DNA of 29,038 nt from a virus (IMGVR_UViG_3300024257_000004), one strand, 5' to 3'; positions 1,182 through 20,923 are shown, counted from the stretch's first letter. Made by a program: numbers and translations. The notes: generated from the sequence alone by a model not told the origin.

Positions 1182-1572
1182 TGATTTAAACCACCTATAT
1201 ACTGACGATATAAAAATAGATAAAGCAGTAGACAGAGCTAAAACTTTATTTGGTTCTAGAAAACTGTATACACTATACACGAAACTTGATGGAGATGTTG
1301 TTATATTTGATGATGTATTTATTCAGAAAGTTAGATATGCACTTACAAGTATGCATACAAGCCAGATGACACCGATAGAACTGCAGTTAGTTGAAGACAT
1401 GGTAGAATACCAAAATACTGGGTACCTAGCTAGCAGAAACAACACAAGCGCAGGTAACCTTGCAAATTTACTAGATGACTACCTAAGTGACTCTATAGAC
1501 TGTACTGTAATTGGTTCAGACTACGAAGATCACGAATGGATAAGTTGTCAGATTGAAGGAGAAGAGGCATAA
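1174..1572 (+). CDS. Hypothetical protein (132 aa)
   Basis: In-frame ATG 1174 overlaps the upstream stop (ATGCTTAA), more plausible than GTG 1156; its stop overlaps the next start. Confidence 0.7.
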   Translation: MLNDLNHLYTDDIKIDKAVDRAKTLFGSRKLYTLYTKLDGDVVIFDDVFIQKVRYALTSMHTSQMTPIELQLVEDMVEYQNTGYLASRNNTSAGNLANLLDDYLSDSIDCTVIGSDYEDHEWISCQIEGEEA

Positions 1573-3884
1573 TGGCTGATTTTATTGATGACTTACGGGA
1601 CATAAAAGGGACTAGAGCTGGTGGGGCACAACCATCGGAAACTAAAACATTTGAAGATGGTATATACGGGCACATCTTGTATATGCATGATGATACTATT
1701 GCTAACGTAAATGAGGTACAGGAAGATAGAGACGCTGTCCAAGTACTACATGATACTGTGGTTGAAAAAGAGGCACTAGCTAACCCTCACTACACTAATA
1801 TAGACCTGATAGGTGATGCAATTGAGAATCACAACCTAAACGCTGTTGGTGACAATATTACCAAGGTTATTAGGGTTGCAGATGACTTACTAGAGACTAT
1901 CTCGGAGATAGAAACAGTAGCTGACGATCTGAATGAAACTACTTCAGAGATAGAGGTGGTTGCAAACGCTATTACGAACGTAAATATTGTAGGTTCAGGG
2001 ATGTCAAGTGTGGCTACAGTGGCTACTGATATATCTAATGTTAGTGTAGTTAGCGATGCAATAATTAATGTAAACACGGTAGGTAACTCGATAGCTAATG
2101 TAAACACGGTAGCTGCTAACGATGTAGATATATCAATAGTGGCTAATGACGTGGCTGATATAAACATAGTTGCCGCATCTATTGCAGAGATATTGCTAGC
2201 GGATAACAATGCTGCAATAGCCACGACTAAAGCATTAGAGGCATCAATAAGTGCCTCAGCTGCTCTAGTGAGTGAGGCTAATTCATTGGCCTCAGAAGCT
2301 GCGGCTGCAGTAAGTGAAACAAACGCTGCAAACTCAGAAGCAGGCACAATAGCAGACGCCATAAGTACTGCTGCGGACCTAGTACAAACCAGCCAAGATG
2401 CAATAGATACAGCGGCTGACGTAGTAACTACAAATAACAATGTAGTATTAACTAATGCAGATGCTGCAAGTGCTAGCGTATCAGAGGCTAATTCAAATAC
2501 ATATATGACTCAAGCTTTAGCTCACAAGAATGCAGCAGAGTTGGCAGAGGTCCATGCAGAGACTGCAGAAACAAATGCAGAACTAGCTGAGACTCATGCG
2601 GAGACCGCAGAAGCAGCAAGTTTAGCGAGTCAAGCAGCAGCTTTAGCATCACAACAATCAGCTACGGCTTCAGCAAACAGTGCAGCAGCTAGTGCTACAA
2701 GTGCAGGTAGTTCAGCTATAGATGCTCAATCAAGTGAAGACGATGCAGAAATATCACAAGTAGCAAGTGCCGCTAGTGCATTAGCGTCTAGCAATAGTGC
2801 AAGTGCTTCAAGTACAAGTGCAACCACAGCAACTACTCAAGCAGGAATAGCAACAGCAAGTGCTGCACTGACATCTGCTGACGTGGTATTAACACATGCG
2901 GATACAATATCAACTGCTTCTGATGCTACTCAAACAGCACTTGATAGACTAGCTACTGCAGCCGACGTTGTAGCAACTAGTCAAGACGCTACAAATACTG
3001 CAGCAGATGTTATCAGTACTAATGCGGATGTAGTAGCTACACATAATGATGTGGTGCTAACAAATGCTGATTCGGTAAGTGCTGGAACTAGTGCTGCTAA
3101 TGCAAGTGCATCAGCAGCTACGGCTACAAGTCAAGCGGCTATAGCAACTACACAGGCGGGCAATGCTAGTATTAGCGCAAGTAGTGCAGCAGTAAGTGAG
3201 ACTAACGCTGGAATATCAGAAAGTAACTCTGCTTCAAGCGAGTTAGCATCAAGCACGTCAGAGAATAATGCAGCTACAAGTGAGCTGAACGCTGCCAATA
3301 GTGCACAAACTGCTATAACTCAAGCAAGTAGTGCTAGTAGCTCAGCTAGTTCTGCACTAGCAAGTGAAGGTAAAGCAGAAAAATGGGCAGAAGAGCTAGA
3401 AGACGTAGAGGTTGAGACTGGTAAATATAGTGCTAAACACTATGCGTCTAAAGCTCAAACGTTCTCTAATTCAAACGTAGTGCATGTTAAATACTTGGAT
3501 GCGGTAGTTAAAGGTGACCCTGTAAAGATTAGTGGATACAACCAAGGCGAGAATGCTATAGAAGTAGTAAGGTGTACTACGAACCAAGATATCTCCATAG
3601 GATTATCTATTGGAAGTTATGCACTAAATGAATTCGGGTATGCCATGAGTTCTGGGCTACTAGAAGAACTAGATACTAGTGCTTGGCCAGTAGGTACGAT
3701 ACTATATACAGACGGCACAGGATTGACAGATGTGAAACCTACGGTTGGTCACTACCAAGCAATAGCTTATGTAGTTAAAGATCAATTAAATAATGGTGCT
3801 GTTATGGTAAGTATAGCTGAACCTGTAGAAATCATAGGTACATATGCGGAATTCGAAACTGCATTTGATACTGCGGAGGCATAA
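1572..3884 (+). CDS. Fibre protein (770 aa) with heptad VNTVA repeats, Ala/Ser-rich shaft and C-terminal beta domain
   Basis: Contains NVNTVGNSIANVNTVA repeats, ADVVLTHAD repeats, an SASAA-rich region, the KAEKWAE...GKYSAKHYASKA motif, a terminal GDPV...LDTSAWPVGTILY domain, and ends in GTYAEFETAFDTAEA. Confidence 0.8.
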   Translation: MADFIDDLRDIKGTRAGGAQPSETKTFEDGIYGHILYMHDDTIANVNEVQEDRDAVQVLHDTVVEKEALANPHYTNIDLIGDAIENHNLNAVGDNITKVIRVADDLLETISEIETVADDLNETTSEIEVVANAITNVNIVGSGMSSVATVATDISNVSVVSDAIINVNTVGNSIANVNTVAANDVDISIVANDVADINIVAASIAEILLADNNAAIATTKALEASISASAALVSEANSLASEAAAAVSETNAANSEAGTIADAISTAADLVQTSQDAIDTAADVVTTNNNVVLTNADAASASVSEANSNTYMTQALAHKNAAELAEVHAETAETNAELAETHAETAEAASLASQAAALASQQSATASANSAAASATSAGSSAIDAQSSEDDAEISQVASAASALASSNSASASSTSATTATTQAGIATASAALTSADVVLTHADTISTASDATQTALDRLATAADVVATSQDATNTAADVISTNADVVATHNDVVLTNADSVSAGTSAANASASAATATSQAAIATTQAGNASISASSAAVSETNAGISESNSASSELASSTSENNAATSELNAANSAQTAITQASSASSSASSALASEGKAEKWAEELEDVEVETGKYSAKHYASKAQTFSNSNVVHVKYLDAVVKGDPVKISGYNQGENAIEVVRCTTNQDISIGLSIGSYALNEFGYAMSSGLLEELDTSAWPVGTILYTDGTGLTDVKPTVGHYQAIAYVVKDQLNNGAVMVSIAEPVEIIGTYAEFETAFDTAEA

Positions 3885-3886
3885 AA

Positions 3887-4240
3887 ATGTTTGTACTAAG
3901 TGAAGAAATAAATATATATAGAGGATCTACGTATAAGCATACATTCTACCTGGTTGATAATGATGGCGGGTTACTGGATGCGTCAGGTTACGAGGCTAGA
4001 CTACAAGTGAAAGCTAAGCGCGGTGACATTAAAGTACTTGCTGACTTATCAGAGTACTTAGATACAACGACATACGCTGCGCAAGGGATTATACTGTTAA
4101 CTATCCCTCATGAATATACTTCTGGTACTACCCTTAGTAGGGGCGTATTTGATTTATTAGTTAAGAAGACTTTGACTGGCGAAATATCAAGAGCGGCAGT
4201 AGGAACACTTAAAGCTACAGATGGAATAACGAGGTTCTAA
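3887..4240 (+). CDS. Small Ig-like structural protein (BppU-N-like fibre/baseplate adaptor)
   Basis: Pattern IYRGSTY...DASGYEARLQVK...GIILLTIP...VFDLLV...G.L...GIT is typical of this family. Confidence 0.6.
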   Translation: MFVLSEEINIYRGSTYKHTFYLVDNDGGLLDASGYEARLQVKAKRGDIKVLADLSEYLDTTTYAAQGIILLTIPHEYTSGTTLSRGVFDLLVKKTLTGEISRAAVGTLKATDGITRF

Positions 4241-4241
4241 T

Positions 4242-4526
4242 ATGGGAAATCAAGAGATACTGCTGACAAGACCAGACACGCTTAATATAAGAGAGAACAT
4301 AGATTCTCCAGAAGAGTATATAAAAGTACTACAAAATACTATATATACTCCAACCGAAGAGTCTCTCGAGAACTTCATGTCGCTGAATTCTCTGGATGCA
4401 ACGAAGAACATAGTAAATCTGGCATCCGGGATAGATAGTAGGATACTAGATATTGAAAATGATTATGTGACTGAAGCTGACGCAAATAAAATTGCTAACA
4501 AAAAAGCACTGATATACGGAGGGTAG
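4242..4526 (+). CDS. Hypothetical structural protein (94 aa)
   Basis: Tightly packed ORF ending YVTEADANKIANKKALIYGG, reminiscent of the AIAMAIALG-type termini of phage fibre adaptors. Confidence 0.6.
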   Translation: MGNQEILLTRPDTLNIRENIDSPEEYIKVLQNTIYTPTEESLENFMSLNSLDATKNIVNLASGIDSRILDIENDYVTEADANKIANKKALIYGG

Positions 4527-4527
4527 T

Positions 4528-4794
4528 ATGGGTAAATCATATACAGGTAATATTACAAGTACTGAAGAGGAAGGCGTTATAGTTATAGCGGTAAACATAT
4601 TTAACCCTGGAGCGTTAAACTCTATTGCAAAAATTAGCCTAACGGATAGTCTTGGAAAGTTAAGAGGCACTGTGTTAGAGAAGGAACTTAGACCTAAAGA
4701 AACTATATTCTTAAATACTAAGATGTTTATAGTTGACGGGGATACTCTGGTTCTGGAAGGCGCAGAATTTATAATAGCCGGGGAAGAAGTGTAA
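4528..4794 (+). CDS. Small beta-rich structural protein (88 aa)
   Basis: Alternating hydrophobic strands (VIVIAVNIFN...LRPKETIFLNTKMFIVDGDTLVLEG); translationally coupled to its neighbours. Confidence 0.6.
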   Translation: MGKSYTGNITSTEEEGVIVIAVNIFNPGALNSIAKISLTDSLGKLRGTVLEKELRPKETIFLNTKMFIVDGDTLVLEGAEFIIAGEEV

Positions 4795-5084
4795 TGCTAC
4801 TAAGTCTTACGGATATGCGATACTCTGCATCAACAATTGCAGTTCCCGATAGAAGTGAAGTATATATTGATAGTAAAATAACGTACTGGGATGCAGATCT
4901 TGGAAGAAACTATATACTACTAGATCATGAACCGGATGGTGAAATAATATCACTTGTGATAATGAAAGATGGAGAATCTCTTGTTGTTGACGGTAAACCT
5001 AACAGATCAGGCAAGAGAATAGAGTTTCTGTATGATGACAACCTTAACGGGTGTGAATCAGAAGTTAGATACCTAATTAGCTAG
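4794..5084 (+). CDS. Small beta-domain protein (96 aa), possible stand-alone paralogue of the C-terminal domain of the 707-aa protein
   Basis: TAATG overlap with the upstream gene; C-terminus LNGCESEVRYL resembles FNGDACKVHYF of 5457..7580. Confidence 0.6.
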   Translation: MLLSLTDMRYSASTIAVPDRSEVYIDSKITYWDADLGRNYILLDHEPDGEIISLVIMKDGESLVVDGKPNRSGKRIEFLYDDNLNGCESEVRYLIS

Positions 5085-5094
5085 GAGAGTTGAT

Positions 5095-5334
5095 ATGTTA
5101 CCACGAAGATATTTTGGAACCGCAAGTACTCACAGTACTGATGACATAGTAAGAACTAGGGACGCATTCAATACTAAACTAATTGATGCTAATGATGTCG
5201 CCGGAGCTGAGGCAGTCAAAGATATAATAAACATGCAGGATGAGCTTAGTGAGAGAATTACTAGCAACACTGGAATTCTTGATGTAATCGGCACATACGA
5301 TGAATTCGAAGTATCATTTGATGCTGCTAAATAG
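5095..5334 (+). CDS. Small protein (79 aa) carrying the shared C-terminal tag
   Basis: RBS AGGAG at about 5083; ends GTYDEFEVSFDAAK. Confidence 0.7.
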   Translation: MLPRRYFGTASTHSTDDIVRTRDAFNTKLIDANDVAGAEAVKDIINMQDELSERITSNTGILDVIGTYDEFEVSFDAAK

Positions 5335-5456
5335 CCGCTGCAAATAAATTTGGTCCATCTAAGACAGAAAACTGGTATCGCCAATAGTGATATGCGTAAT
5401 GTAGTAATACTGCATTACAGAAGCATTCAATTGATAAAATAACAAAGGAAATAAAT

Positions 5457-7580
5457 ATGAGTACACCTACACAGTTTAGAAAAGTAGCCACTAAGGTTGC
5501 GCCACTATTTTTAACGAAAGTAGCATACACTGACATCGTTGATGATCTATCTTCAGGGGGAACTGGAGTTCCGTTATCTGCGGAGCAAGGTAAACTTATA
5601 AGCACTTCAGTTTCACAAGAAGTTGCTGCTAGAGCACAAGCTATTCTTGACTTAAAAGACGGAGTTGCTGTTGAGGGTAATACACTAAATAAGTTATACG
5701 GTAAGATTTCACAAGAAGTTACTGATAGATCTTCTGCAATTACTCAAGAAGTTGCTGACAGAGAGGCTGCAATCTTAGTTGAAAAAAATAGAGCCGAAGC
5801 TGAAGAATTAGCAATCAAAGGATTAGTTACTACAAGTAATTCTGATACTGATGCTGCAATTGCCGCTGAAAAAGCTAGAGCTGAAGCTGAAGAACTTAGA
5901 ATTGAAGAAAAAGTAGATCAAGAAGTACTTGACAGAACTGCTGGAGATACTGCATTAACTACTAAAATCAATACTGATATCGCTGCTGAAAAATTAAGAG
6001 CTGAAACTGCTGAGGGTGTAAACGCTACAGCTATCGCTACTGAAACTTCTGATAGAATTACTGCTGTAACTAATGAAGAAGTTGCAAGAGATGCTGCTAT
6101 CCTTATTGAGACTAACAGAGCTGTTGCTGCTGAAGGTGTTAATACTACTGCAATTACTACTGAAGCAACTACTAGAAGTACTGCTGATACAACTTTACAA
6201 TCAAACATTAATACGTTAGAAGGTGCTGTAACTGCTAATAAAACTGCTATTGAAGCTTCATTAGGTAACGAAGTTACTGCTAGAACTACTGCTGATACTG
6301 CATTATCTGGAAGATTAACTGCTGTTGAAACAGTAATTACTGCTGGTGTTTCTTGGAAAGGTTCTGTAGCTGATATCGCTGCAATCGACGCATTAGACGA
6401 AACTACGTTACTTGCTGGTCAAGCTTACTATGTAACTGCTGAAAAAGATGTATACGTTGTTCTTGCTGATCAAGGTGGAGATTACGTTCCTGCTACATTC
6501 ACTACTAAATCATTCTTAAAAATCGCTGATTTCAAAGAATTATCTGGATTAGTTGCTGCTGAAAAAGCTAGAGCTGAAGGTGCTGAAGCTACTTTAACTT
6601 CTGCTATCAATGCTGAAGTTACAAACAGAAGTAATGAAATCATCAGAGTTGAAGGTTTAATCACTGCTGAAGCTACTGCAAGAGGTAATGATATTACTAC
6701 TGTTAATAATTCAATTGCTGCTGAAACTACTGCAAGAGAAAATGCTGATACAGCAATTACTACTGCATATACTGCTGCTGATAGTGCACTACAAGGTAAT
6801 ATTGATACTGAAGAAGCTGCAAGAATCGCTGCTGACACTGCATTAGACACTGCTTATAAAGCTGCTGACACTGCTGCTAAAACTGCATACGAAGCTGCTG
6901 ATGCTACATTAACTGCTGACTTAGCTTCTGAAGTTGCTAACAGAATCGCTGACGTAGATGCTGAAGAAACTAGAGCAACTACTGCTGAAGGTTCTCTTTC
7001 TGGTAGATTAGATATCGTTGAAGGTGACAACACTGTTGACGGTTCAATCAAAAAAGCTGTATTAGTTGAGAACACTAGAGCATTAGCTGCTGAGCAAGCT
7101 AATACTGACTTAATCAACTTAGAGATCACTAACAGAATTGCTGATGTTGACGCTGAAGAATCTGCTAGACTTGCCGGTGATAACGCATTAGACGCTAGAT
7201 TAGATGTAATCGAAGGTGATACTACGGTTGAAGGTTCAGTTAAAAAAGCTGAAATGGATGCTACTAACTACGCAATCGCTGCAATCGTTAGACCTAAGTT
7301 AGAAGGTAAAGCTGGTGACTTAATTGTTGCTGGAGATACTGTAACTGTTTCTAAAAACATCTTTGATGGTGAAAACGGAATTGTATTCGGTGAGGTAATT
7401 TGTTACCATGAGGGTGAGGCTGTAGCATGTAATGTTGCAACTGTATCTAATAACGTAATTACTCTTCAAGTTGGTGAGCCAGGTGAATTTAATGGTGATG
7501 CATGTAAAGTTCATTACTTCTATGACTTAGCTTCTAACAATGGAGTTGGTGAGCATGGTGTTGGAGAGGGTGACATATAG
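5457..7580 (+). CDS. Long coiled-coil fibre (707 aa), possibly a head fibre/whisker
   Basis: AAGGA RBS; IVDDLSSGG...LSAEQGK motif; about 550 aa of ExxxR/AEKARAE/TARxxADTAL repeats at 11- and 18-residue spacing; C-terminal beta domain; strongly biased codons (GCT/ACT/GTT/TTA/AGA). Confidence 0.8.
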   Translation: MSTPTQFRKVATKVAPLFLTKVAYTDIVDDLSSGGTGVPLSAEQGKLISTSVSQEVAARAQAILDLKDGVAVEGNTLNKLYGKISQEVTDRSSAITQEVADREAAILVEKNRAEAEELAIKGLVTTSNSDTDAAIAAEKARAEAEELRIEEKVDQEVLDRTAGDTALTTKINTDIAAEKLRAETAEGVNATAIATETSDRITAVTNEEVARDAAILIETNRAVAAEGVNTTAITTEATTRSTADTTLQSNINTLEGAVTANKTAIEASLGNEVTARTTADTALSGRLTAVETVITAGVSWKGSVADIAAIDALDETTLLAGQAYYVTAEKDVYVVLADQGGDYVPATFTTKSFLKIADFKELSGLVAAEKARAEGAEATLTSAINAEVTNRSNEIIRVEGLITAEATARGNDITTVNNSIAAETTARENADTAITTAYTAADSALQGNIDTEEAARIAADTALDTAYKAADTAAKTAYEAADATLTADLASEVANRIADVDAEETRATTAEGSLSGRLDIVEGDNTVDGSIKKAVLVENTRALAAEQANTDLINLEITNRIADVDAEESARLAGDNALDARLDVIEGDTTVEGSVKKAEMDATNYAIAAIVRPKLEGKAGDLIVAGDTVTVSKNIFDGENGIVFGEVICYHEGEAVACNVATVSNNVITLQVGEPGEFNGDACKVHYFYDLASNNGVGEHGVGEGDI

Positions 7581-7617
7581 TCGCCTTCCCTGCCCTGTAT
7601 AAATAGATAGTAGATTT

Positions 7618-7651
7618 AATAGGGCAGTGTACTACACATTGCCCTATTTTT
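7618..7651 (+). terminator. Rho-independent terminator
   Basis: AATAGGGCAGTGT-ACTAC-ACATTGCCCTATT forms a 13-bp stem with one G.U pair, and the stem end runs into T5. Confidence 0.75.
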
Positions 7652-7677
7652 AATTAATACAAAATGAAAGGATAATA

Positions 7678-9339
7678 ATGGATAACGTTACATATAACTT
7701 GCCGTCGAAGCAAGGAAATATAACTATACCACCTGGACAGAAGATAGTATACAACGACCTGGAACTTCTAGGTAGAGGAACATCTAACTGGGGTGACGAG
7801 TTCAATGGAAACTACATTAAACTTGATGATAAGATTAGTGACAAACTAAGTGCTGTAATTAATCAAGATATCATACCTGACGTTGCAGATACTTATACAC
7901 TTGGTTCTTTAGAGAAACCATTTAAGGATCTATATGTAGGTGCTAACTCCTTCTACGTTAATGGCCAAAAAGTAATCAGTGACAATTCCGGTACTATTGT
8001 ACTTAGTGCTGATAATGACCAGAATATACAGATCAAAGCTAATGGTGGTGGTGATATTGAATTCTACCCATCAGGTACTGGTAATATTGAAATGAAAGGT
8101 ACTGTTGAGATTGCTGCAGGGAAGTTGCTAAGAACTAGCGATGGTTCTACGCTTACTATAAATAACTCTATCTCTGTTGATGGTGATGTATCTGCAGACT
8201 CATTCAATGGTAAGACTATAGAAGTTAATGTTCCAGCTGATGCAGTATTCACGGATACAATTGTAGATATTAGTGGTAAAGTGGATAAAATTGATGTACT
8301 GACTGCTACAAGTTCAAGCAATAAGATTGTTACTCAAAGTGATATTTCTGCACTTGGTAGTGGAGACATGGTTCAGTCAGTGTATGATACTGATGGAAAT
8401 GGAATTGTCGATAAAGCTGAAGATGCAAACACAGTAAATGGATTCAATCTAGAGGTAAGCGTGCCTCATGATGCAATATTCACTGATACGTTGTACGGTA
8501 AGCCTGCATCAGAACCAATTTCATATATCGCTGGGCTTCAAGTAGAGCTGGATAGTAAACTTGGTTCTGAATCATTAACTACATTAACTTACATAGGTAA
8601 TAAGTTAAGGTATACGGATGAGAATGGCGGAGTGTCTGAAATTAGTTTAAGTGAGTACATAGATGATACTAATCTTGCTAGAGTAACTTCTGGAGCAATC
8701 GCACCGGACGGTATAGCTACATTCTATAGAGATGACGCAACTACGTTCACAATTGATATGAGTTCATTCTTAGATGACACAAACCTAATCACATCTGTTG
8801 CAGGTAAGACTGGGTCTGTTATACTAGTAAAGAGTGACATAGTTGACTTCGATGATTCTGACTACGCTGCTGCTTCTCAGGGTATTAAAGCTGACACTGC
8901 TGTGCAACCGAACAGTAACGTGAGTATACTTGCTAATGATGCTGGGTACATTACTGTCGCTGACGTACCTACGAATGTAAGTGAACTAGCTAATGACGCT
9001 GGGTATATTACTATTGCTGGTATATCTGGTAAGGTTGACAAAGTTACAGGCAAAGGATTATCTACTAATGATTATACTTCTGCTGAAAAAACTAAACTAA
9101 CTAGTGTAGAGGCTGGGGCTACGGCGGACCAGACTAAAGCAGATATTGATGCATTAGGTATTAATTCTGCAACAGTTAACGGTAAAAACGTACAGAGCGA
9201 TGTTCCAGCTAATGCTGTGTTTGTTGATACAATATACGACGATTCTACTTTAAGCTCTAGGGTAGCTACGTTAGAGACTGCTGATAGTAATCATGGTACT
9301 TACGCTGAGTTTGCTGCTGCATTCGATGCTGCTAAATAA
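7678..9339 (+). CDS. Mosaic fibre protein (553 aa)
   Basis: Carries DLELLGRGTSNWGDEFNGNYIKL, IIPDVADTYTLGS..PFKDLY, three NGxxxxxxVPxxAxFxDT motifs, two LANDAGYIT, KVDKVTGKGLSTNDYTSAEKTKL, and ends GTYAEFAAAFDAAK. Confidence 0.8.
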   Translation: MDNVTYNLPSKQGNITIPPGQKIVYNDLELLGRGTSNWGDEFNGNYIKLDDKISDKLSAVINQDIIPDVADTYTLGSLEKPFKDLYVGANSFYVNGQKVISDNSGTIVLSADNDQNIQIKANGGGDIEFYPSGTGNIEMKGTVEIAAGKLLRTSDGSTLTINNSISVDGDVSADSFNGKTIEVNVPADAVFTDTIVDISGKVDKIDVLTATSSSNKIVTQSDISALGSGDMVQSVYDTDGNGIVDKAEDANTVNGFNLEVSVPHDAIFTDTLYGKPASEPISYIAGLQVELDSKLGSESLTTLTYIGNKLRYTDENGGVSEISLSEYIDDTNLARVTSGAIAPDGIATFYRDDATTFTIDMSSFLDDTNLITSVAGKTGSVILVKSDIVDFDDSDYAAASQGIKADTAVQPNSNVSILANDAGYITVADVPTNVSELANDAGYITIAGISGKVDKVTGKGLSTNDYTSAEKTKLTSVEAGATADQTKADIDALGINSATVNGKNVQSDVPANAVFVDTIYDDSTLSSRVATLETADSNHGTYAEFAAAFDAAK

Positions 9340-9372
9340 TTCAACGTGACTTAAGGATATACTAGGTATAAT
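9340..9372 (+). promoter_or_regulatory. Putative sigma70-type promoter (TTCAAC-N5-TTAAG-N11-TATAAT)
   Basis: Perfect TATAAT at 9367-9372 preceded by gg; box spacing identical to the other sites. Confidence 0.7.
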
Positions 9373-9386
9373 CTAGTATATCTTTT
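9353..9386 (+). terminator. Inverted repeat (terminator-like and/or operator) overlapping the promoter
   Basis: AAGGATATACTAG-GTATAAT-CTAGTATATCTTT is a 13-bp stem with one G.U pair, ending in T4. Confidence 0.6.
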
Positions 9387-9487
9387 CGGTAGACCTAAAT
9401 AACGTCTAAAAACTTATTTGAGTATCCTCGCTTAGAGGAAGTTGTCCCAAACAGGGACGTGCAAATAAAAAATAGAAAAGGAAACAA

Positions 9488-12079
9488 ATGAGTATAGTAC
9501 AACAAATGGGTACTAAAACCGGTGCCGAATTCAAAGCCCATAGGCTGAGAATTGAAACACTAGAAGATTTTTCGGAAGCTACTACAAGCTTAAACCTTGT
9601 AGGCAATCAGTTAGAGTATACTGACGAAGATGGTGTAGTTACTACACACGACTTATCATTATATTTAGATGACACAAATTTAGCAAGGCTAGTTAATGGT
9701 ACACTAGATAGTCAAACGGGTATAGCAACTTTTACAAGAGATGATGGATCTACATTTACTGTAGATTTTAGCGCTTTCTTTGATGACACACAAGTTGTTG
9801 TTAATGATACTTTAACAAGTACTTCTACTACAGAAGCATTATCAGCTAATCAAGGTAAAGTGTTAAATGCTAATAAGTTAGGTATTAACGCAAAAGCAGT
9901 TGACTCTGATAAACTAGATGGTAAAGACAGTTCAGAATTTGCTTTAGCTCATTCACATCCATTTGCAAGTGATACACATAATCATGATACGAATTACTTA
10001 GGTATAACAGCTACTGCATCAAATGCTAGTAAGCTAGAAAATAAAACTCTAGCTACTATTAAAACAGAAGTTGTTGATTCTATTGTTAATGGTGCTGGTG
10101 GAGCGTATGATACATTAAAAGAATTAGAAACTGAAATAAAAGCTAATGATGGTGATATTTCAACTGTAATTACTAATTTAGGTGATAAGGTAAGTAAAAC
10201 ATCATCACAAGCTATGAGAGCAACAGATGCTTTAACTGTTAGTGATGACACAATTACTATTCATAAAGGTGATGGAACTAGTGAATCTGTAAGTATTGCT
10301 GATTCTAATACTTGGAGAAGTATTTCTGATAGTGTAACATCTACAAGTAATTCGGTATCTGCTTCATCTAATGCAGTTAAGACTGCTTACGATAAAGCTA
10401 ATCATTCACATCCATATTTAGGAAGTACAGCAAAAGCTGTTGACTCTGATAAACTAGATGGACAACACGCTAGTGCTTTTGCTACTAGTGCTCAAGGAAC
10501 ACTAGCAACTAATGCTTTACCTAAAACGGGTGGCACTATGACTGGCAAGTTGACCCTTAATGCAGTCACACCTCAAATAGACTTTAACGGTACCTCAGAT
10601 AGTGGTGTTGATATGGCTATTAAGGCTACTCCGGAAGGATTGGATTTCTTTGAGCCTGAAGATAGTAATAAGATACATTTTCAAATACTAGATGATGCTG
10701 GGGTAAATGCACCTTATGGTTATAAGGTAGGAACTACATCGGTTATTGAATCAGATGCTAAAATCGATGCAAACAAGATTAAAAACGTACCTGCTTCTTG
10801 GCTTATAGGTGATACAGATACGAACACTTGGAGAAGTATTTCTGATAGTGTAACATCTACAAGTACAAGTGTATCTGCTTCATCTAAGGCTGTTAAGACT
10901 GCTTATGATAAAGCTAATCATTCACACAACTACTTACCTAGTTCTGGTGGTAGAATTGACAATGGTACTAATACTACAGTTGAAATCAAATGTGATGATG
11001 CTGGTAAAGCTATGCTTAATGTTTCAGGTGATGGACAAGGTACTGGTCAAGTATATGTAGGTCAATCAAATGATCATGGTGGTGGTATCGAATATAACGG
11101 AGATAATAATCCTAGTACAACTGGTGCTGGATCTGACCATATTACATTATTTAGAAAAGCTGCTGGAACTTACACATGGACTGCTAGAAACCAGGTTAAT
11201 AGCAATAACTGGGAATTTAGAGGTGATATTAAAGCACCAACATTTACGGGTACTGCATCAAATGCTGATAAATTAGATGGAATTAATAGTTCTCAATTCC
11301 TAAGAAGCGATGCAGATGATACTATGAACGGGACACTTACTCTACAATCAACTGGTTCTGTAGGTATAAATATTAATGCTGACACAGATAACGCTACAGA
11401 AACAGATTTGCCATTTATGAAGATGACTCAAGATGGCGGAATAGGAGAATTAACTGTAGGTGTAGATAACAACAGTCCGTATATTTTCCCAAACCGTACA
11501 GATAATGCTGACCAAAATAGTGATAATAACCAACTGCATATTAAGCAAAAAAATGGAACATTTGGGAAGGTATGGCACTCACTTAATGATGGCGCAGGTT
11601 CAGGATTAGATGCTGATAAGTTAGACGGTAAAGATTCAAGTGCATTCAACCAAATAATTGGTACTGATAGTGATATCAATACTTCAGGTGCTACAATTGT
11701 AGATAATATTTATGTAACTGATGGTGTTATTACATCAATGGGTACAAGAACATTAACACCTGCAGATATTGGAGCAGCTACTACTGCAGATTTAGCTGGT
11801 GGGTTAACTGATTCTGGGCATAGTTACGCTACTAACGGTTATCAAAAATTAAGCAATGGTTTGATTATTCAATGGGGTAAAAAACAAGGTGCAGGGAAAA
11901 CTCTTGTAACTTTCCCTATTGCTTTCCCTACTGCATGCTTAAATGTAAACTTAGTTACTCAATATAACGGCTATACTACAGCAAATGGTAATATATACCC
12001 AACACCTACAACAACTAGTTTTTATGGGCATATATACAACACATCTTACTATGGATACTGGTTCGCAATAGGATATTAA
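9488..12079 (+). CDS. Tail fibre / receptor-binding protein (863 aa) with C-terminal gp53-like domain
   Basis: Contains VVNDTLTSTSTTEALSANQGK, GAGGAYDTLKEL, two tail-fibre repeats (SISDSVTSTS..SASS.AVKTAYDKAN), four (A/S)DKLDG motifs, LPKTGGTMTG, and C-terminal NGYQKLSNGLIIQWG...VTFPIAFP...YWFAIGY. Confidence 0.9.
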   Translation: MSIVQQMGTKTGAEFKAHRLRIETLEDFSEATTSLNLVGNQLEYTDEDGVVTTHDLSLYLDDTNLARLVNGTLDSQTGIATFTRDDGSTFTVDFSAFFDDTQVVVNDTLTSTSTTEALSANQGKVLNANKLGINAKAVDSDKLDGKDSSEFALAHSHPFASDTHNHDTNYLGITATASNASKLENKTLATIKTEVVDSIVNGAGGAYDTLKELETEIKANDGDISTVITNLGDKVSKTSSQAMRATDALTVSDDTITIHKGDGTSESVSIADSNTWRSISDSVTSTSNSVSASSNAVKTAYDKANHSHPYLGSTAKAVDSDKLDGQHASAFATSAQGTLATNALPKTGGTMTGKLTLNAVTPQIDFNGTSDSGVDMAIKATPEGLDFFEPEDSNKIHFQILDDAGVNAPYGYKVGTTSVIESDAKIDANKIKNVPASWLIGDTDTNTWRSISDSVTSTSTSVSASSKAVKTAYDKANHSHNYLPSSGGRIDNGTNTTVEIKCDDAGKAMLNVSGDGQGTGQVYVGQSNDHGGGIEYNGDNNPSTTGAGSDHITLFRKAAGTYTWTARNQVNSNNWEFRGDIKAPTFTGTASNADKLDGINSSQFLRSDADDTMNGTLTLQSTGSVGININADTDNATETDLPFMKMTQDGGIGELTVGVDNNSPYIFPNRTDNADQNSDNNQLHIKQKNGTFGKVWHSLNDGAGSGLDADKLDGKDSSAFNQIIGTDSDINTSGATIVDNIYVTDGVITSMGTRTLTPADIGAATTADLAGGLTDSGHSYATNGYQKLSNGLIIQWGKKQGAGKTLVTFPIAFPTACLNVNLVTQYNGYTTANGNIYPTPTTTSFYGHIYNTSYYGYWFAIGY
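10310..10926 (+). repeat. 101-bp direct repeat, copies at 10310-10410 and 10826-10926
   Basis: 93 of 101 bases identical by hand alignment, first 40 bp identical; offset 516 bp (172 codons, in frame). Confidence 0.95.
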
Positions 12080-12088
12080 GGATAAATA

Positions 12089-12439
12089 ATGAAAATAGCA
12101 AATATAGATAACGATAACAAACTATTAGGATGGTACGATTCAAATATTCATTCTGTAATCCCTACTCCTAATGTAGAAGTAACAGACGAGCAATGGCAAG
12201 TTGCTTTAGATAATGGACACAATAAAGTTAATCAAGACGGTTCAACTGAAGTTTTTGACTTTAGAAGTGAAGAAGAAATTGCTGAAGCTGAAGCAAATGA
12301 ATATAAGGTTTTAAGACAAGCAGAGTACCCATCAATTGAAGATTATGTTGATGGTATTGTAAAAGGCGATGACGCTCAAGTACAAGAATATATTGATAAG
12401 TGTTTAGAAGTAAAAGCTAAATACCCAAAACCAGAATAG
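12089..12439 (+). CDS. Tail fibre assembly/chaperone protein
   Basis: Follows the fibre; GWYDSNIH..IP...VEVTDEQWQ N-terminus and RQAEYPSIEDY...VKAKYPKP C-terminus. Confidence 0.8.
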   Translation: MKIANIDNDNKLLGWYDSNIHSVIPTPNVEVTDEQWQVALDNGHNKVNQDGSTEVFDFRSEEEIAEAEANEYKVLRQAEYPSIEDYVDGIVKGDDAQVQEYIDKCLEVKAKYPKPE

Positions 12440-15182: not shown

Positions 15183-15209
15183 AGACAGAATAACTCATAG
15201 GGAGATTTG

Positions 15210-17474
15210 ATGATCGTAGATAATGCTGAATCAGTAGACAATTCACAAGAAACTAAGCTAACTTCGTGGAAGAGCGAACCTTCATTCAATGACTTATATG
15301 AAGACTACAAGCAAGCTCAGGAAGACCATTCTCAGTGGTTACTGAAGCTTGATGAGAGAAAAGTAAACCTAGACGGTGGACCTGAATTAGAGGTACCGAA
15401 AGGTAAAAGTACAGTTAGACCAAAGTTGATTAGAAAGCAACATGAATGGTTATACCCGTCACTAGAAGAACCGTTCCTGAATACTGAGGATATGTTCGAT
15501 ATCAAACCGAGAACTGCTGAAGACATTAATGCCGCTAAGCAAAATAGTTTAATGTTAAATTACCAATGGGCTACTAAAGTAGACAAAGTAAAACTAGTTG
15601 GGGACATTGTGAGAACTGATGTAGACGAAGGTACTGTAATAGTTAAGACTGGTTGGGTTGTAGAAGAAGAGATCGTTGAAGTAGAAAAAGATTTCCCAGT
15701 ATACGCTAGCCCAGAAGAAAGCTACATGATGCTACAACAAGCAGTTGAATCAGGTCAAATGGATCCAGCTCAAGCTCAAGCAATGCTGGAGAGTGGAGAA
15801 CCAGTTCAGACTGGAGTACAAACACAAATAGTTGAAGAGCCTAGATTAATCAAGAATCATCCTACGTACGAAGTATGTAATAACTATAATGTAATCATCG
15901 ATCCTACATGTGAAGGTGTAGTAGAGAACGCTCAGTTCATTATTCACGAGTATGAAACAGACATGAACACACTTAAGAAACAAGAGTACTCATGCGAAGT
16001 ATGTGAAACAGTAGTTGACGGAGTTAGTACTACAACTAAGGAAGAACAAGGTATTTACAAGAACTTAGATAAAGTTGTACTCGACAGTAAAGCTAGAGAG
16101 TTCTACAATGAATATGAACAACAAACTACATTCGAGTTTAAAGATAAAGCTAGAAAAAAATTAACAGCGTACGAATACTGGGGTTACTGGGACATTGACG
16201 GTTCAGGCGAAACTACAGCAGTAGTTGCTACATGGATAGGTAAAGTACTAGTTAGAATGGAAGAAAACCCATTCCCTCACGGAGAATTACCGTTTAGTGT
16301 TGAAAGATACATGCCTGTTAAAGGTGAAGTATACGGAGAGACTGACGGGGACTTACTAGCTGAGAACCAAGATAGTATCGGTAAAATGACTAGGGCAGCT
16401 CATGATATTACTGCAGACCAGGCAATTGGTCAAGAGTTCATTGATGAACAATTCTTTGCTAGTCCACTACAAAAAGATAACTACAAAGCCGGTAGGACAG
16501 TTTACTTCAGATCAGGTAAAGATCCAAGAACTAGTATCCACAAGAACAGTGTAACACCGGTACCACGTACAGTATTCGACATGATCGGACTACAGAAAGA
16601 AGACGCTGAGACATACAGTTCAGTAAGGCCATTTGGTGGAGATACTGCGTCACAAAACTTAGGTAACAAGAATACGCAGAGTAGGTCAGCATTAGATGCT
16701 ACAAGTAAGAGACAACTAAGTACACTACGAAGACTAAGTAACTTATTCAAAGACATGGCTAGAAAAACTATTATAATGAATCAAGCATACCTAGATGAGG
16801 AAGAAGTAGTTAGAGTTACTGCTGAAGAATTCGTTAAAGTAAGACGAGAAGACCTAATGGGTGAGTTCGACTTAAAGATTGATGTTAGTACTCCAGAGAA
16901 AGATCAACAAGAAGCCCAAGAGCTTACTATGTTGCTACAAACTAACGGTCCGCAAATGGATCCAAAGATGTACCAAATAACTATGGCTAAGATTGCTAGA
17001 CTAATGAAGCAACCAGACTTAGCTAAACAGTACGAAGAGCATGAACCGCAGCCAGATCCAATGCAGCAACAGCTACAGCAAATGGAAATGGAAAAAATGC
17101 AGTTAGAGATGCAAAAATTACAAATGGAAATAGCTGACTTAGCTAAGGGTATCGAGTCTGAAGATAGTAAGATAACAGAAAGAAATTCAAGAGTTGAACA
17201 AAATCTGAGAAGTGAAATGGCTGAAAACTTCGCTGAAGCTAGAAAGAAAAATGCTCAAGCGGAGTTAACTACAGCCCAAGCTGACAAGTTAAGAAGTGAA
17301 ACAGACTTACTGGACCAAAAATTCGTTAGATCGAATGATGGATTAGACAGAATCGAAAAGCTGGAAGACGAAGCCATGAAGCATGACAGAAAGATGAACG
17401 AGAGAGAACACCAAAGAGTAACTGACTTAGATAAGCAGGCATTTACAGAATTAAATAAAAGAGGACCACAATAA
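15210..17474 (+). CDS. Portal protein, N4 gp59-like
   Basis: LTSWKSEP...PKGKSTVRPKLIRKQHEWLYPSLEEPFL...LNYQW, AYEYWGYWDIDGSG...ENPFP, GEFDLKIDVST; ATG 15210 is 5 nt from GGGAG, so it is preferred over TTG 15207. Confidence 0.93.
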   Translation: MIVDNAESVDNSQETKLTSWKSEPSFNDLYEDYKQAQEDHSQWLLKLDERKVNLDGGPELEVPKGKSTVRPKLIRKQHEWLYPSLEEPFLNTEDMFDIKPRTAEDINAAKQNSLMLNYQWATKVDKVKLVGDIVRTDVDEGTVIVKTGWVVEEEIVEVEKDFPVYASPEESYMMLQQAVESGQMDPAQAQAMLESGEPVQTGVQTQIVEEPRLIKNHPTYEVCNNYNVIIDPTCEGVVENAQFIIHEYETDMNTLKKQEYSCEVCETVVDGVSTTTKEEQGIYKNLDKVVLDSKAREFYNEYEQQTTFEFKDKARKKLTAYEYWGYWDIDGSGETTAVVATWIGKVLVRMEENPFPHGELPFSVERYMPVKGEVYGETDGDLLAENQDSIGKMTRAAHDITADQAIGQEFIDEQFFASPLQKDNYKAGRTVYFRSGKDPRTSIHKNSVTPVPRTVFDMIGLQKEDAETYSSVRPFGGDTASQNLGNKNTQSRSALDATSKRQLSTLRRLSNLFKDMARKTIIMNQAYLDEEEVVRVTAEEFVKVRREDLMGEFDLKIDVSTPEKDQQEAQELTMLLQTNGPQMDPKMYQITMAKIARLMKQPDLAKQYEEHEPQPDPMQQQLQQMEMEKMQLEMQKLQMEIADLAKGIESEDSKITERNSRVEQNLRSEMAENFAEARKKNAQAELTTAQADKLRSETDLLDQKFVRSNDGLDRIEKLEDEAMKHDRKMNEREHQRVTDLDKQAFTELNKRGPQ

Positions 17475-19774: not shown

Positions 19775-20923
19775 ATGGCACAAAAATTTAACACTGGTGG
19801 AACTACTTCATCAATTGGTACTCAATTTAATGATAAGTTCTGGTCAAGAGCTGCGGTAATCGAAGCTAAGAAAAAGAAAGTATTCTCACAAATGGGTGAC
19901 AGATTAACTCAACCAAAAAACTTTGGTGATAAAATTGTTAAATACCACGAATTACCAATTTTACATGCTTCAAACGTTAATGATCAAGGTATCGATGCTA
20001 ACGGTGTAACTATTGCTAATGGTAACTTATACGGTGGATCTAAAGATTTATCTACTCAAAAAGGTGCATTCCCTACACTTACTGAAGAGGGTGGAATGGT
20101 AAATAGAGTTGGTATGAAGAGACTTACTTTAGAAGCAGACGTTTCTGAGTTCGGATTCTACATGGCATTCACTAAAAGATCATTAGAGATGGATACTGAA
20201 AAAGGTTTATTAGCTAGATACTCTAGAGGTGTTGGTGAAGCTCAAGGTGATATCAGAGAAGCACAAGTTCAAGCTTCATTAATTACTCAATCAGAGCAAA
20301 ACAGAGTATTCGCAGGTTCTGCAACTTCTCAAGTTACTGTTGATGAGACTTCTGAATTAACATTCCAATCGTTAAGAAACATGGATAAATCTCTTAAAGA
20401 CGCTAGATGTCCAAAAGATACTAAGTTAATTGATGGTTCTACTAAAGTTGGTACTTCAACTGTTGGTAAAGCTAGATATGTTTACGTTGGTGCTGAAATG
20501 ATTCCTACATTAGAAGATATGCAACATAATAACAAAGACCTATGGGTTCCAGTTGAAATGTATGCTTCTGCAGGTAACATTGCTGAAGGTGAAATCGGTA
20601 AAATCGGTCAATTCAGATTTATTGAAGTAGAAGAAATGCCTTCTTACCAAGGTGTTGGAGCAGATGCTACAGGTTCAGCTACACACTACGAAACTGATGA
20701 CAAGTTCGATGTATTCCCAGTATTATTTGTTGGTTCTGGATCATTCGCTACTGTTGGTTTCGAAGGTGACGTTGCTAGAGTTACTACTGTAATGCCTAAA
20801 GCTGACGCACATAACGATGTATACGGTAAAAAAGGTGCAGTATCAATTTCATGGTACTACGGATTCATGACACTTAGACCTGAGTGGATTAGATCAATCA
20901 ACTGTTCAGCTAAAATCGCATAG
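19775..20923 (+). CDS. Major capsid protein, N4 gp56-like
   Basis: NVNDQGIDANGVTIANGNLYGGSKD...PTLTEEGGMVNRVG, RYVYVGAEM, GEIGKIGQFRFIEVEEM, DVYGKKGAVSISWYYG...RPEW; highly biased codons. Confidence 0.96.
   Translation: MAQKFNTGGTTSSIGTQFNDKFWSRAAVIEAKKKKVFSQMGDRLTQPKNFGDKIVKYHELPILHASNVNDQGIDANGVTIANGNLYGGSKDLSTQKGAFPTLTEEGGMVNRVGMKRLTLEADVSEFGFYMAFTKRSLEMDTEKGLLARYSRGVGEAQGDIREAQVQASLITQSEQNRVFAGSATSQVTVDETSELTFQSLRNMDKSLKDARCPKDTKLIDGSTKVGTSTVGKARYVYVGAEMIPTLEDMQHNNKDLWVPVEMYASAGNIAEGEIGKIGQFRFIEVEEMPSYQGVGADATGSATHYETDDKFDVFPVLFVGSGSFATVGFEGDVARVTTVMPKADAHNDVYGKKGAVSISWYYGFMTLRPEWIRSINCSAKIA

Follow-up and report, generated by a model that had tools for sequence, protein, structure and literature searches.

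The stretch considered here is a window of 29,038 nucleotides (nt; the whole stretch of DNA that was analysed) from the viral contig IMGVR_UViG_3300024257_000004, which holds the structural module of an uncultured phage, a distant relative of coliphage N4, and the element in question is a short peptide, the tag, that ends three of its proteins and is most likely an interface for assembly, situated distally on stalk-like fibres. The gene order runs from the end of the large terminase gene (2–703) through two genes for proteins of 138 amino acids (aa) to fibre genes of 770, 707, 553 and 863 aa, followed by lysis genes, the portal gene (15207–17474), the gene of the major head protein (19775–20923) and that of a 1597-aa tail protein. 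No close relative of the phage was found among GenBank phages, and proteins of the window occur on contigs of up to 115 kb. The tagged proteins and the elements within them are the following:

1572–3884, forward strand: 770-aa fibre P0001, the first tagged protein (translation), which matches tail-fibre PHROGs
1884–2213, forward strand: gp66-like segment of P0001, residues 105–214 (phrog_29955, PDB 9lc0/9yf4)
3501–3830, forward strand: bead domain of P0001, residues about 644–753, Phage_cement_2- and gp82C-like by weak matches
3837–3881, forward strand: tag copy 1, 15 residues, C-terminus of P0001
5095–5334, forward strand: 79-aa protein P0002 (translation), in which a short peptide at the N-terminus is followed by a single long predicted helix and the tag
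5290–5331, forward strand: tag copy 2, 14 residues, C-terminus of P0002
7678–9339, forward strand: 553-aa fibre P0003, with fibre repeats, a short coiled coil and the tag, and without a globular tip domain
9259–9276, forward strand: trimeric coiled-coil signature R-h-x-x-h-E of P0003 (h, hydrophobic residue), 12 residues before the tag glycine, as read from the translation
9295–9336, forward strand: tag copy 3, 14 residues, C-terminus of P0003

The 770-, 79- and 553-aa proteins all end in GTYxEFxxxFDxA (13 residues) plus one or two further residues, and with their stop codons the tag stretches occupy 3837–3884, 5290–5334 and 9295–9339, so that the translations agree with the sequence-only reading, which had placed a common tag at these three ends. 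A six-frame scan of the window revealed no fourth copy, and the tag is absent from the 863- and 707-aa fibres of the same phage. Pairwise BLASTP found no other significant similarity among the three proteins, the remainder of which had rightly been called unalignable. The match between them is far beyond chance: when the C-termini of all open reading frames (ORFs) were compared with each other within each of 82 phage loci (17,224 pairs), the window tag pairs scored 49, 48 and 43, and the best chance pairs about 31. One pair from locus L005 (score 45), tried as a private tag of a related phage, turned out to be ordinary paralogy aligned over 215 residues. The adjacent fibre genes of this portal-related phage (L005, 181–3959; 541 and 717 aa) are 46% identical over those last 215 residues and contain repeated modules with Cys residues.

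The tag-coding DNA is 72–74% identical between the three copies, more than one codon is used at seven of the eight invariant tag residues, and the copies of the 770- and 553-aa proteins use different codons at 7 of 10 identical residues. The 60 nt upstream of the tag are only 27–42% identical and the downstream DNA does not align. This codon divergence, together with the unalignable flanks, indicates that the copies are old and that it is the peptide that is under selection; the tag is genuine, maintained at the protein level, and, as had been supposed from the window by itself, not the product of recent copying.

Over all copies, including those described below from other phages, the pattern is h-[DEN]-x-h-G-T-[YF]-x-[DE]-F-x-x-A-[FY]-[DN]-A. 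As a working definition, the tag was taken as h-[DEN]-x-h-G-T-[YF]-x-[DE]-F-x-x-A-[FY]-[DN] lying no more than about 40 residues before the stop codon of a tail or fibre protein. The stretch h-[DEN]-x-h usually precedes the tag proper, with an R-h-x-x-h-E trimeric coil frequently found further upstream; this trimer signature reportedly goes back to work by Kammerer and colleagues. Read directly, the tag consists of a Gly hinge, a Thr followed three residues on by an acidic residue, which is the spacing of a helix capping box (T-x-x-E), and aromatic residues at i, i+3 and i+7 with an Ala at i+10, all of which would lie on one face of a three-turn helix. From this we infer that the tag folds as a short helix, and the residue pattern fits the amphipathic helix, with Y, F and F on one face, that had been envisaged earlier. 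An AlphaFold2 (AF2) single-sequence model of the C-terminus of the 770-aa protein sets the tag residues in a helix at low confidence (predicted local distance difference test, pLDDT, 37), and the single-sequence model of the 79-aa protein has a helix at residues 15–69 and a tag of low confidence. The latter protein is preceded by an AGGAG 6 nt 5' of its ATG and is present, as the exact protein, on 12 contigs. No solved structure containing the motif was found in the PDB, and Pfam and PHROG scans of the last 40 residues at an expectation value (E) of 10 returned nothing.

The tag is not private to the window phage. It is observed in at least four other lineages, which makes five with the window phage, and is a portable fibre end-piece. 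An exhaustive profile search of 1.84 billion representative proteins reached six proteins at E 0.001 or better, three of which are true copies, namely the 553-aa protein, a fragment of the 770-aa protein and the 126-aa P0008. The exact 770-aa sequence is not in a collection of 15 billion proteins, in which only a 50-aa C-terminal fragment (P0006) occurs, yet its neighbours are, so assembly or gene calling seems to fail at this gene. P0008 is a member of the 114–152-aa mini-fibres from Bacteroidales prophages and metagenomes, in which a conserved N-terminal motif and the common fibre motifs APETLDTL and GFMSxxDKxKLD precede the tag; the mini-fibres P0016 and P0017 carry a degenerate tag copy and then a canonical one at the end. 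In the prophage L183, with a gene order of protease, head protein, amidase, further genes and sheath, a 126-aa and a 71-aa protein are alike only in the tag region (13 of 23 residues, E 2e-6), and different codons are used at 3 of the 10 identical residues. The pattern of the window, that is, unrelated proteins with a common tag and among them a small protein made of little more than coil and tag, as the 79-aa protein had been described, is repeated in this unrelated phage.

Further bearers (L246, L249 and L252) came from a relaxed DNA pattern search of IMG/VR. L246 is another N4-like phage, its terminase 36% identical to that of the window, in which a 572-aa tagged tail fibre lies directly after the terminase and adaptor genes; the likeness of this fibre to the 770- and 553-aa proteins is confined to the last 15–30 residues, coil and tag, and to align it with the 553-aa protein, exactly seven residues have to be gapped where the R-h-x-x-h coil gives way to the tag. 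In L249 the tag ends a 220-aa fibre and in L252 a 1515-aa tail protein. An Arg-led coiled-coil heptad stands 12 residues before the tag Gly in P0003, P0002 and the 220-aa protein of L249, and five residues before it in the L246 fibre, where the spacing is seven residues shorter; the heptad fits R-h-x-x-h-E fully in P0003 and L249 and partly in P0002. From motif to stop there are one or two residues in the window copies, four in L246 and L249, 19 in L252, 3–25 in the mini-fibres and the 71-aa protein of L183, and about 39 in the mini-fibre P0012, so that all true tags lie 1–39 residues from the stop and most within 25. Moreover, tags of the same genome are more alike than those of different genomes, with GTY-x-E in all three window copies and GTF-D-D in both L183 copies.

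Strictly C-terminal placement, a check that the sequence-only reading had itself suggested, was observed in every bearer lineage, and internal matches of looser patterns are attributable to chance. A control pattern without the alanine positions matched 12 loci, one being L246, and the other 11, including L001, were discarded as internal positions or spurious ORFs. Throughout about 2.5 Mb of fetched phage DNA, the relaxed protein pattern found true tags only, all within 12 residues of the stop. A strict back-translated pattern gave a single match in IMG/VR, a spurious ORF opposite a repressor gene that was rejected as chance, and 11 matches in Joint Genome Institute (JGI) metagenomes, of which only those in L086/L091 are true, the others, those in DnaE among them, being chance as well. 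Likewise treated as chance is a 64–72-aa ORF in L083/L088 with a perfect tag pattern 11 residues before its stop, which is alpha/beta-like and stands in a non-fibre context. The tag was found neither in 80 portal-related loci nor in 80 loci related to the 553-aa fibre, where apparent matches reaching residue 549 were fibre repeats. The tag profile, run as a word-based search over 5.8 billion proteins, recovered the window's own proteins only, tblastn of the tag segments against 50,697 GenBank phages gave nothing or GFMSxxDKxKLD fibre repeats only, and among 401 Bacteroidales genomes the mini-fibre was present only in the genome already known. The 79-aa protein was also considered as a mini-fibre homologue beyond the tag, at a BLAST E of 0.006, but hhalign aligns only 18 columns around the tag, and the protein lacks both the mini-fibre N-terminal motif M..LMxQIG and the APETLDTL core.

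The polarity of the 770-aa fibre can be read from its likeness to N4 gp66. Its residues 105–214 match phrog_29955 ('appendage') at E 1.7e-4 and residues 106–173 match PDB 9lc0/9yf4 ('60 kDa protein') at E 0.003, a similarity to gp66 that covers part of the protein, the first 80 residues not aligning. The gene follows the terminase and two 138-aa genes, as N4 gp66 follows gp68 and gp67, and the two 138-aa proteins have no detectable similarity to N4 gp67. The protein is laid out as a non-helical N-terminal peptide, a long coil and the gp66-like segment. In N4, the N-terminus of gp66 is built into the neck (PMC13434306), and in DEV both fibres attach via their N-termini, Schitoviridae fibres being generally N-terminally anchored (PMC11445570). 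Since the 770-aa protein is gp66-like and the N-terminus of gp66 is built into the neck, its tag would lie at the distal end of the fibre and would not plug into a virion hub.

Immediately before the tag lies the bead domain, whose four matches are each weak and all concordant: to PF09956 with 14.3 bits (cut-off 24, E 0.055, profile positions 16–98 of 103), to phrog_30025 at E 0.0054, to residues 163–240 of the 241 of A-1(L) gp82 (PDB 8keg) at E 0.1, and, among predicted models, to structural neighbours in the ESM Atlas with template modelling (TM) scores of 0.81–0.88, one cluster of which is 57% PF09956. The gp82 alignment reaches the last residues of gp82 and the tag starts two residues later, which suggests that the tag extends a domain that is already complete. 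The gp82C bead of A-1(L) is a trimer and serves, in a neck fibre built as a bead chain, as the platform into which the following trimer inserts its N-terminal hairpins (PMC10966104). Behind a domain of this type, a tag acting as a folding nucleus alone would be redundant.

The neighbouring genes are these:

3887–4240, forward strand: 117-aa protein, by prediction an LtfC-like beta-sandwich and a candidate fibre collar, translationally coupled to P0001
4242–5084, forward strand: three small genes (94, 88 and 96 aa), tightly packed between the tagged genes of the operon
9488–12079, forward strand: 863-aa receptor-binding fibre P0005, a candidate tip protein without a recognisable virion-anchor domain

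The 863-aa fibre has a Gp53-like_C domain at residues 787–863 in addition to fibre repeats, and small genes also follow it, at 12089–12439. The small genes at 4242–5084 had no family match in Pfam and PHROG scans. The 117-aa protein resembles, with an ESM Atlas feature score of 0.97 and a TM score of 0.84 (both sides predicted), a cluster that is 74% PF23926 (LtfC), and it matches phrog_1084; it has no Pfam match even at E 10, PF23926 included, and no sequence match in the PDB. In T5-like phages, the LtfC collar holds the N-terminal peptide of the lateral fibre (PMC10713586), and as far as the predicted folds go the 117-aa protein would suit the role of N-terminal anchor for the 770-aa fibre more than that of a tag socket. 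A fibre collar of the LtfC type would be unusual in an N4-like podovirus.

The reading that we favour, to which a probability of roughly 0.4 may be given, is that the tag, an aromatic helix with a Gly hinge and a capped N-terminus, closes stalk fibres devoid of a tip and also provides a standard joint for tip proteins. The three tag helices of a trimer would bundle at the distal end of stalk proteins that have no receptor-binding tip, and onto this standard joint a tip or extension protein without a virion anchor of its own would dock head-to-tail. In the window phage, one and the same joint would be found on the gp66-like 770-aa appendage, on the 553-aa fibre and on the 79-aa mini-stalk, and the 863-aa receptor-binding fibre would be the most obvious candidate rider. 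The bundle, as well as the existence and identity of a docking partner, is what we infer, and the mechanism is a proposal; the tag itself is a real observation. A head-to-tail chain had already been raised as an option by the sequence-only reading, and it stands here as the preferred one, although the N-terminus of the 863-aa fibre as its partner is not significant.

Several findings favour a joint. Most bearers are tipless (the 79- and 553-aa proteins, the 220-aa protein of L249, the 71-aa protein of L183 and the mini-fibres), and anchorless tip-like proteins are often encoded next: in the window the 553-aa fibre is followed by the 863-aa one, in L086 there is a 188-aa protein, and in L249 a 279-aa fibre-anchor protein and the 220-aa fibre are followed by a tailspike-like protein of 688 aa. 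The tag is, moreover, kept at the gp66 position in two N4-like phages with unrelated fibre bodies. It is on these grounds, together with the likeness of tags within a genome and their redundancy as a folding nucleus behind a self-sufficient bead domain, that the joint is favoured. In L249, the 279-aa ORF (reverse strand; 4379–5215 in plus-strand coordinates) carries the podovirus fibre-anchor domain phrog_1640 at residues 1–135, ends in an acidic, aromatic, tag-like helix and precedes the tagged 220-aa fibre and the 688-aa protein, and the three proteins may form a chain of anchor, adaptor and spike.

Against the joint stands, above all, the search for its other half. A docking partner was identified neither by profile nor by comparison of shared proteins, in a scan of tag and partner that for this phage covered the 29,038-nt window of a genome of roughly 115 kb. 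Only the tagged proteins are common to the window and the Bacteroidales loci L086/L182, L183 and L186, so that no conserved hub or chaperone gene is seen in these three loci. In an ungapped BLOSUM scan of 14,353 N-termini, the N-terminus of the 863-aa fibre gave the best non-self matches to the Bacteroidales N-terminal motif. Nevertheless, a profile built without it gives it 7.6 bits (E 5.8, rank 46 of 19,375), and it was rejected as evidence; the gene after the 553-aa fibre does start with the helix that had been described as complementary-looking, but in this profile test its role as the complementary piece is not significant. The N-motif profile, whose motif is common to the mini-fibres of Bacteroidales and L249 and to proteins encoded next to them, does not detect the 688-aa protein of L249, the tagged gene of L186/L251 is followed by membrane (lysis-like) genes and not by a tip gene, and the protein after the tagged one in L252 has no such N-terminus. 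Further points on the same side are that fourteen residues are few for a docking interface, that the hydrophobic moments of the tag are only moderate (0.20–0.36), that both AF2 models are, as single-sequence models of low confidence, too poor for fold searches, and that the invariant residues are equally explained by helix capping and a hydrophobic core, as in a self-contained trimer cap.

A stronger version of the joint, in which the tag would be half of a general plug-and-socket code, so that any tagged stalk could carry any tip or extension protein with a matching N-terminus, seems rather unlikely. If it held, one receptor-binding fibre could be mounted on stalks of different length or position, or mini-fibres could be chained, and the same code would have been exchanged between podoviruses and myoviruses of unrelated hosts.

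The closest competitor of the joint, and nearly as likely, is a helix that only caps the fibre: a self-contained C-terminal element that registers and closes the trimer, nucleating or locking it, needs no partner and has been spread by recombination among fibre genes, in the manner of the T4 fibritin foldon, the established example of a C-terminal registration element from which a fibre folds. This would account for the position of the tag at the extreme C-terminus of predicted trimeric fibrous proteins in every case, for the frequent presence of an R-h-x-x-h-E coil at fixed spacing (12 residues in P0002, P0003 and L249, and 12 minus 7 in L246), and for every invariant residue as part of capping or core. 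It is also consistent with the very small size of the tag, with loci that lack a following tip gene, with residues after the tag that vary from 1 to about 39, as for a free end, and with a conserved partner not being found in the loci compared or in the N-motif profile test. However, the 770-aa fibre already has a bead domain whose A-1(L) homologue trimerises on its own, a three-turn helix is a weak autonomous trimeriser, and a mere cap leaves unexplained both the tipless bearers and the likeness of tags within a genome despite randomised synonymous sites.

The remaining explanations are all improbable. One of them, the least so, regards the tag as an assembly handle that a single phage-encoded chaperone would recognise on several fibres and release after folding; the C-terminal tip is a common site of fibre-chaperone action, there is a proposal of transient 'chaperone caps' for the fibre of a marine schitovirus (PMC10579305), and the small genes at 4242–5084 and 12089–12439 could encode such a protein. 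Nonetheless, no small protein is common to the window and the three Bacteroidales tag loci compared, and the 863- and 707-aa fibres of the same phage do without the tag. Somewhat less probable is that distal fibre ends are parked through the tag on the capsid or on other fibres of the free virion, much as fibres are known to fold back in T7 and T4. In the 770-aa fibre, the domain that precedes the tag resembles phage cement (decoration) proteins, and a tagged mini-fibre gene of a Bacteroidales prophage comes shortly behind those of the major head protein and the amidase, but that domain matches the neck-fibre bead equally well and the capsid proteins of tag-bearing lineages are unrelated (phrog_1357 versus phrog_267). 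There is still less to be said for the virion-proximal plug of the sequence-only reading, which would hang the three fibres on one hub such as the 117-aa protein: the LtfC-like collar gene directly follows the 770-aa gene, and a terminal fibre peptide docks in the LtfC ring of T5-like phages (PMC10713586), yet the docking end is the N-terminus in that system, in N4 and in DEV, and the layout of the 770-aa fibre matches them. Moreover, the tag occurs in mini-fibres of myovirus prophages, with no LtfC-like gene seen in the loci read, and neither the gp66 homology nor the absence of a conserved hub gene from the loci compared agrees with a hub. The least probable explanation of all is that recombination has left behind a module boundary without a function; mosaicism is high among fibre genes and the motif is rare overall (three true copies among the profile matches in the 1.84 billion representatives), but eight residues are invariant where synonymous sites are near randomised, and the motif is kept, always terminal, across phages with 36%-identical terminases and unrelated phage types.

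Among known systems, the T4 fibritin foldon is a 27-residue C-terminal trimerisation domain that also contacts other fibres, and the tag resembles it as a very short element at the extreme C-terminus of a tipless, trimeric coiled-coil fibre, where it would likewise set the register and close the trimer. The foldon is a beta-hairpin propeller of unrelated sequence and twice the length of the tag, which has the look of a single capped helix, and for the tag no sequence match, to the foldon or otherwise, was obtained in Pfam, PHROG or the PDB. Peptidase_S74 modules, as in endosialidases and the T5 L-shaped fibre, are also C-terminal and spread by recombination on unrelated fibre or spike bodies; unlike the tag, which bears no sign of cleavage, they comprise about 150 residues with a catalytic Ser–Lys dyad and are autoproteolytically released after folding, and none of the three tagged window proteins has a Pfam or PHROG match to them. 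The adenovirus fibre tail motif is a short, aromatic, conserved terminal peptide that binds the penton base and is universal for fibres with differing shafts and knobs, but it is N-terminal, proximal, extended in conformation and from a eukaryotic virus. In the branched receptor-binding complexes of G7C (gp66/gp63.1), CBA120 (TSP1–4) and SP6/K1-5 (adaptor), anchors or adaptors carry anchorless spikes, which the order of anchor-domain, tagged 220-aa and tailspike-like proteins in L249 fits; the known docking sites there are, to our knowledge, domains of at least 100 residues (T4 gp10-like) and not a 14-residue C-terminal helix. More generally, the fibre attachment and folding modules that we know of span tens to hundreds of residues and are mostly N-terminal.

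Two further systems are comparable. In the gp82–gp81–gp80 neck fibre of A-1(L) (PDB 8keg; PMC10966104), separate trimers are joined head-to-tail and gp82C aligns with the bead of the 770-aa fibre, but gp82 stops, tagless, where the bead stops, the similarity is weak (E 0.1 to 0.005) and a gp81-like bead protein was not identified in the window. In the LtfA–LtfC joint of the T5-like phage DT57C (PMC10713586), a short peptide at the fibre terminus, with a trimeric coil behind it, is docked in a ring made up of small beta-sandwich proteins, and an LtfC-like gene adjoins the first tagged fibre here. The docking peptide of that system is, however, N-terminal and made of beta-strands, and the LtfC likeness in the window comes from a fold prediction and from language-model features.

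Phage fibres are known to have assembly modules at their termini; what is new is a tag that is not confined to the window phage and forms the end of unrelated fibres both in marine N4-like phages and in Bacteroidales prophages of the gut. A conserved C-terminal helix of 14–18 residues would rank among the smallest portable fibre assembly elements described. The attachment of fibres and the interchangeability of their modules set the host range and matter in practice for the engineering of receptor-binding proteins. If the tag is a joint, fibre tips could be swapped by means of this minimal handle; if it is a cap, it could stand in for the foldon in a compact form.

Some minor features of the loci may be added. 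In L252, on the reverse strand, the adjacent 1515-aa (4702–9246, in plus-strand coordinates) and 508-aa (3179–4702) tail proteins have a longer common C-terminal element, in which a tag variant is followed by a Y-x-P-P-x-x-C tail, and the 508-aa protein has an MTVxxAY N-terminal start in common with a 178-aa protein. In the myovirus-like Bacteroidales prophages L086 (106–1529) and L183 (9989–10880), three consecutive small genes between head and sheath start alike (M..LMxQIG..L.G.KF), with profile scores of E 1e-9 to 1e-11, and L086, a contig of high GC content, contains between its small fibre genes, at about 480–1700, an intergenic repeated DNA element that reads GRSGDRPS-like in several frames and is apparently like repetitive extragenic palindromic (REP) sequences. 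In the window, a terminator-like hairpin with a 13-bp stem lies at 7618–7648, after the 707-aa gene, and an AT-rich hairpin with a T run at about 9355–9390, after the 553-aa gene, so that the fibre genes appear to sit in separate transcription units. The 553-aa fibre has PHROG matches to phrog_22284 and phrog_18608, and a domain of about 80 residues, which matches positions 785–865 of phrog_22284, is common to this protein, where it is internal (residues 295–375; 8560–8802), and to the 863-aa fibre, where it is almost N-terminal (residues 29–105; 9572–9802).

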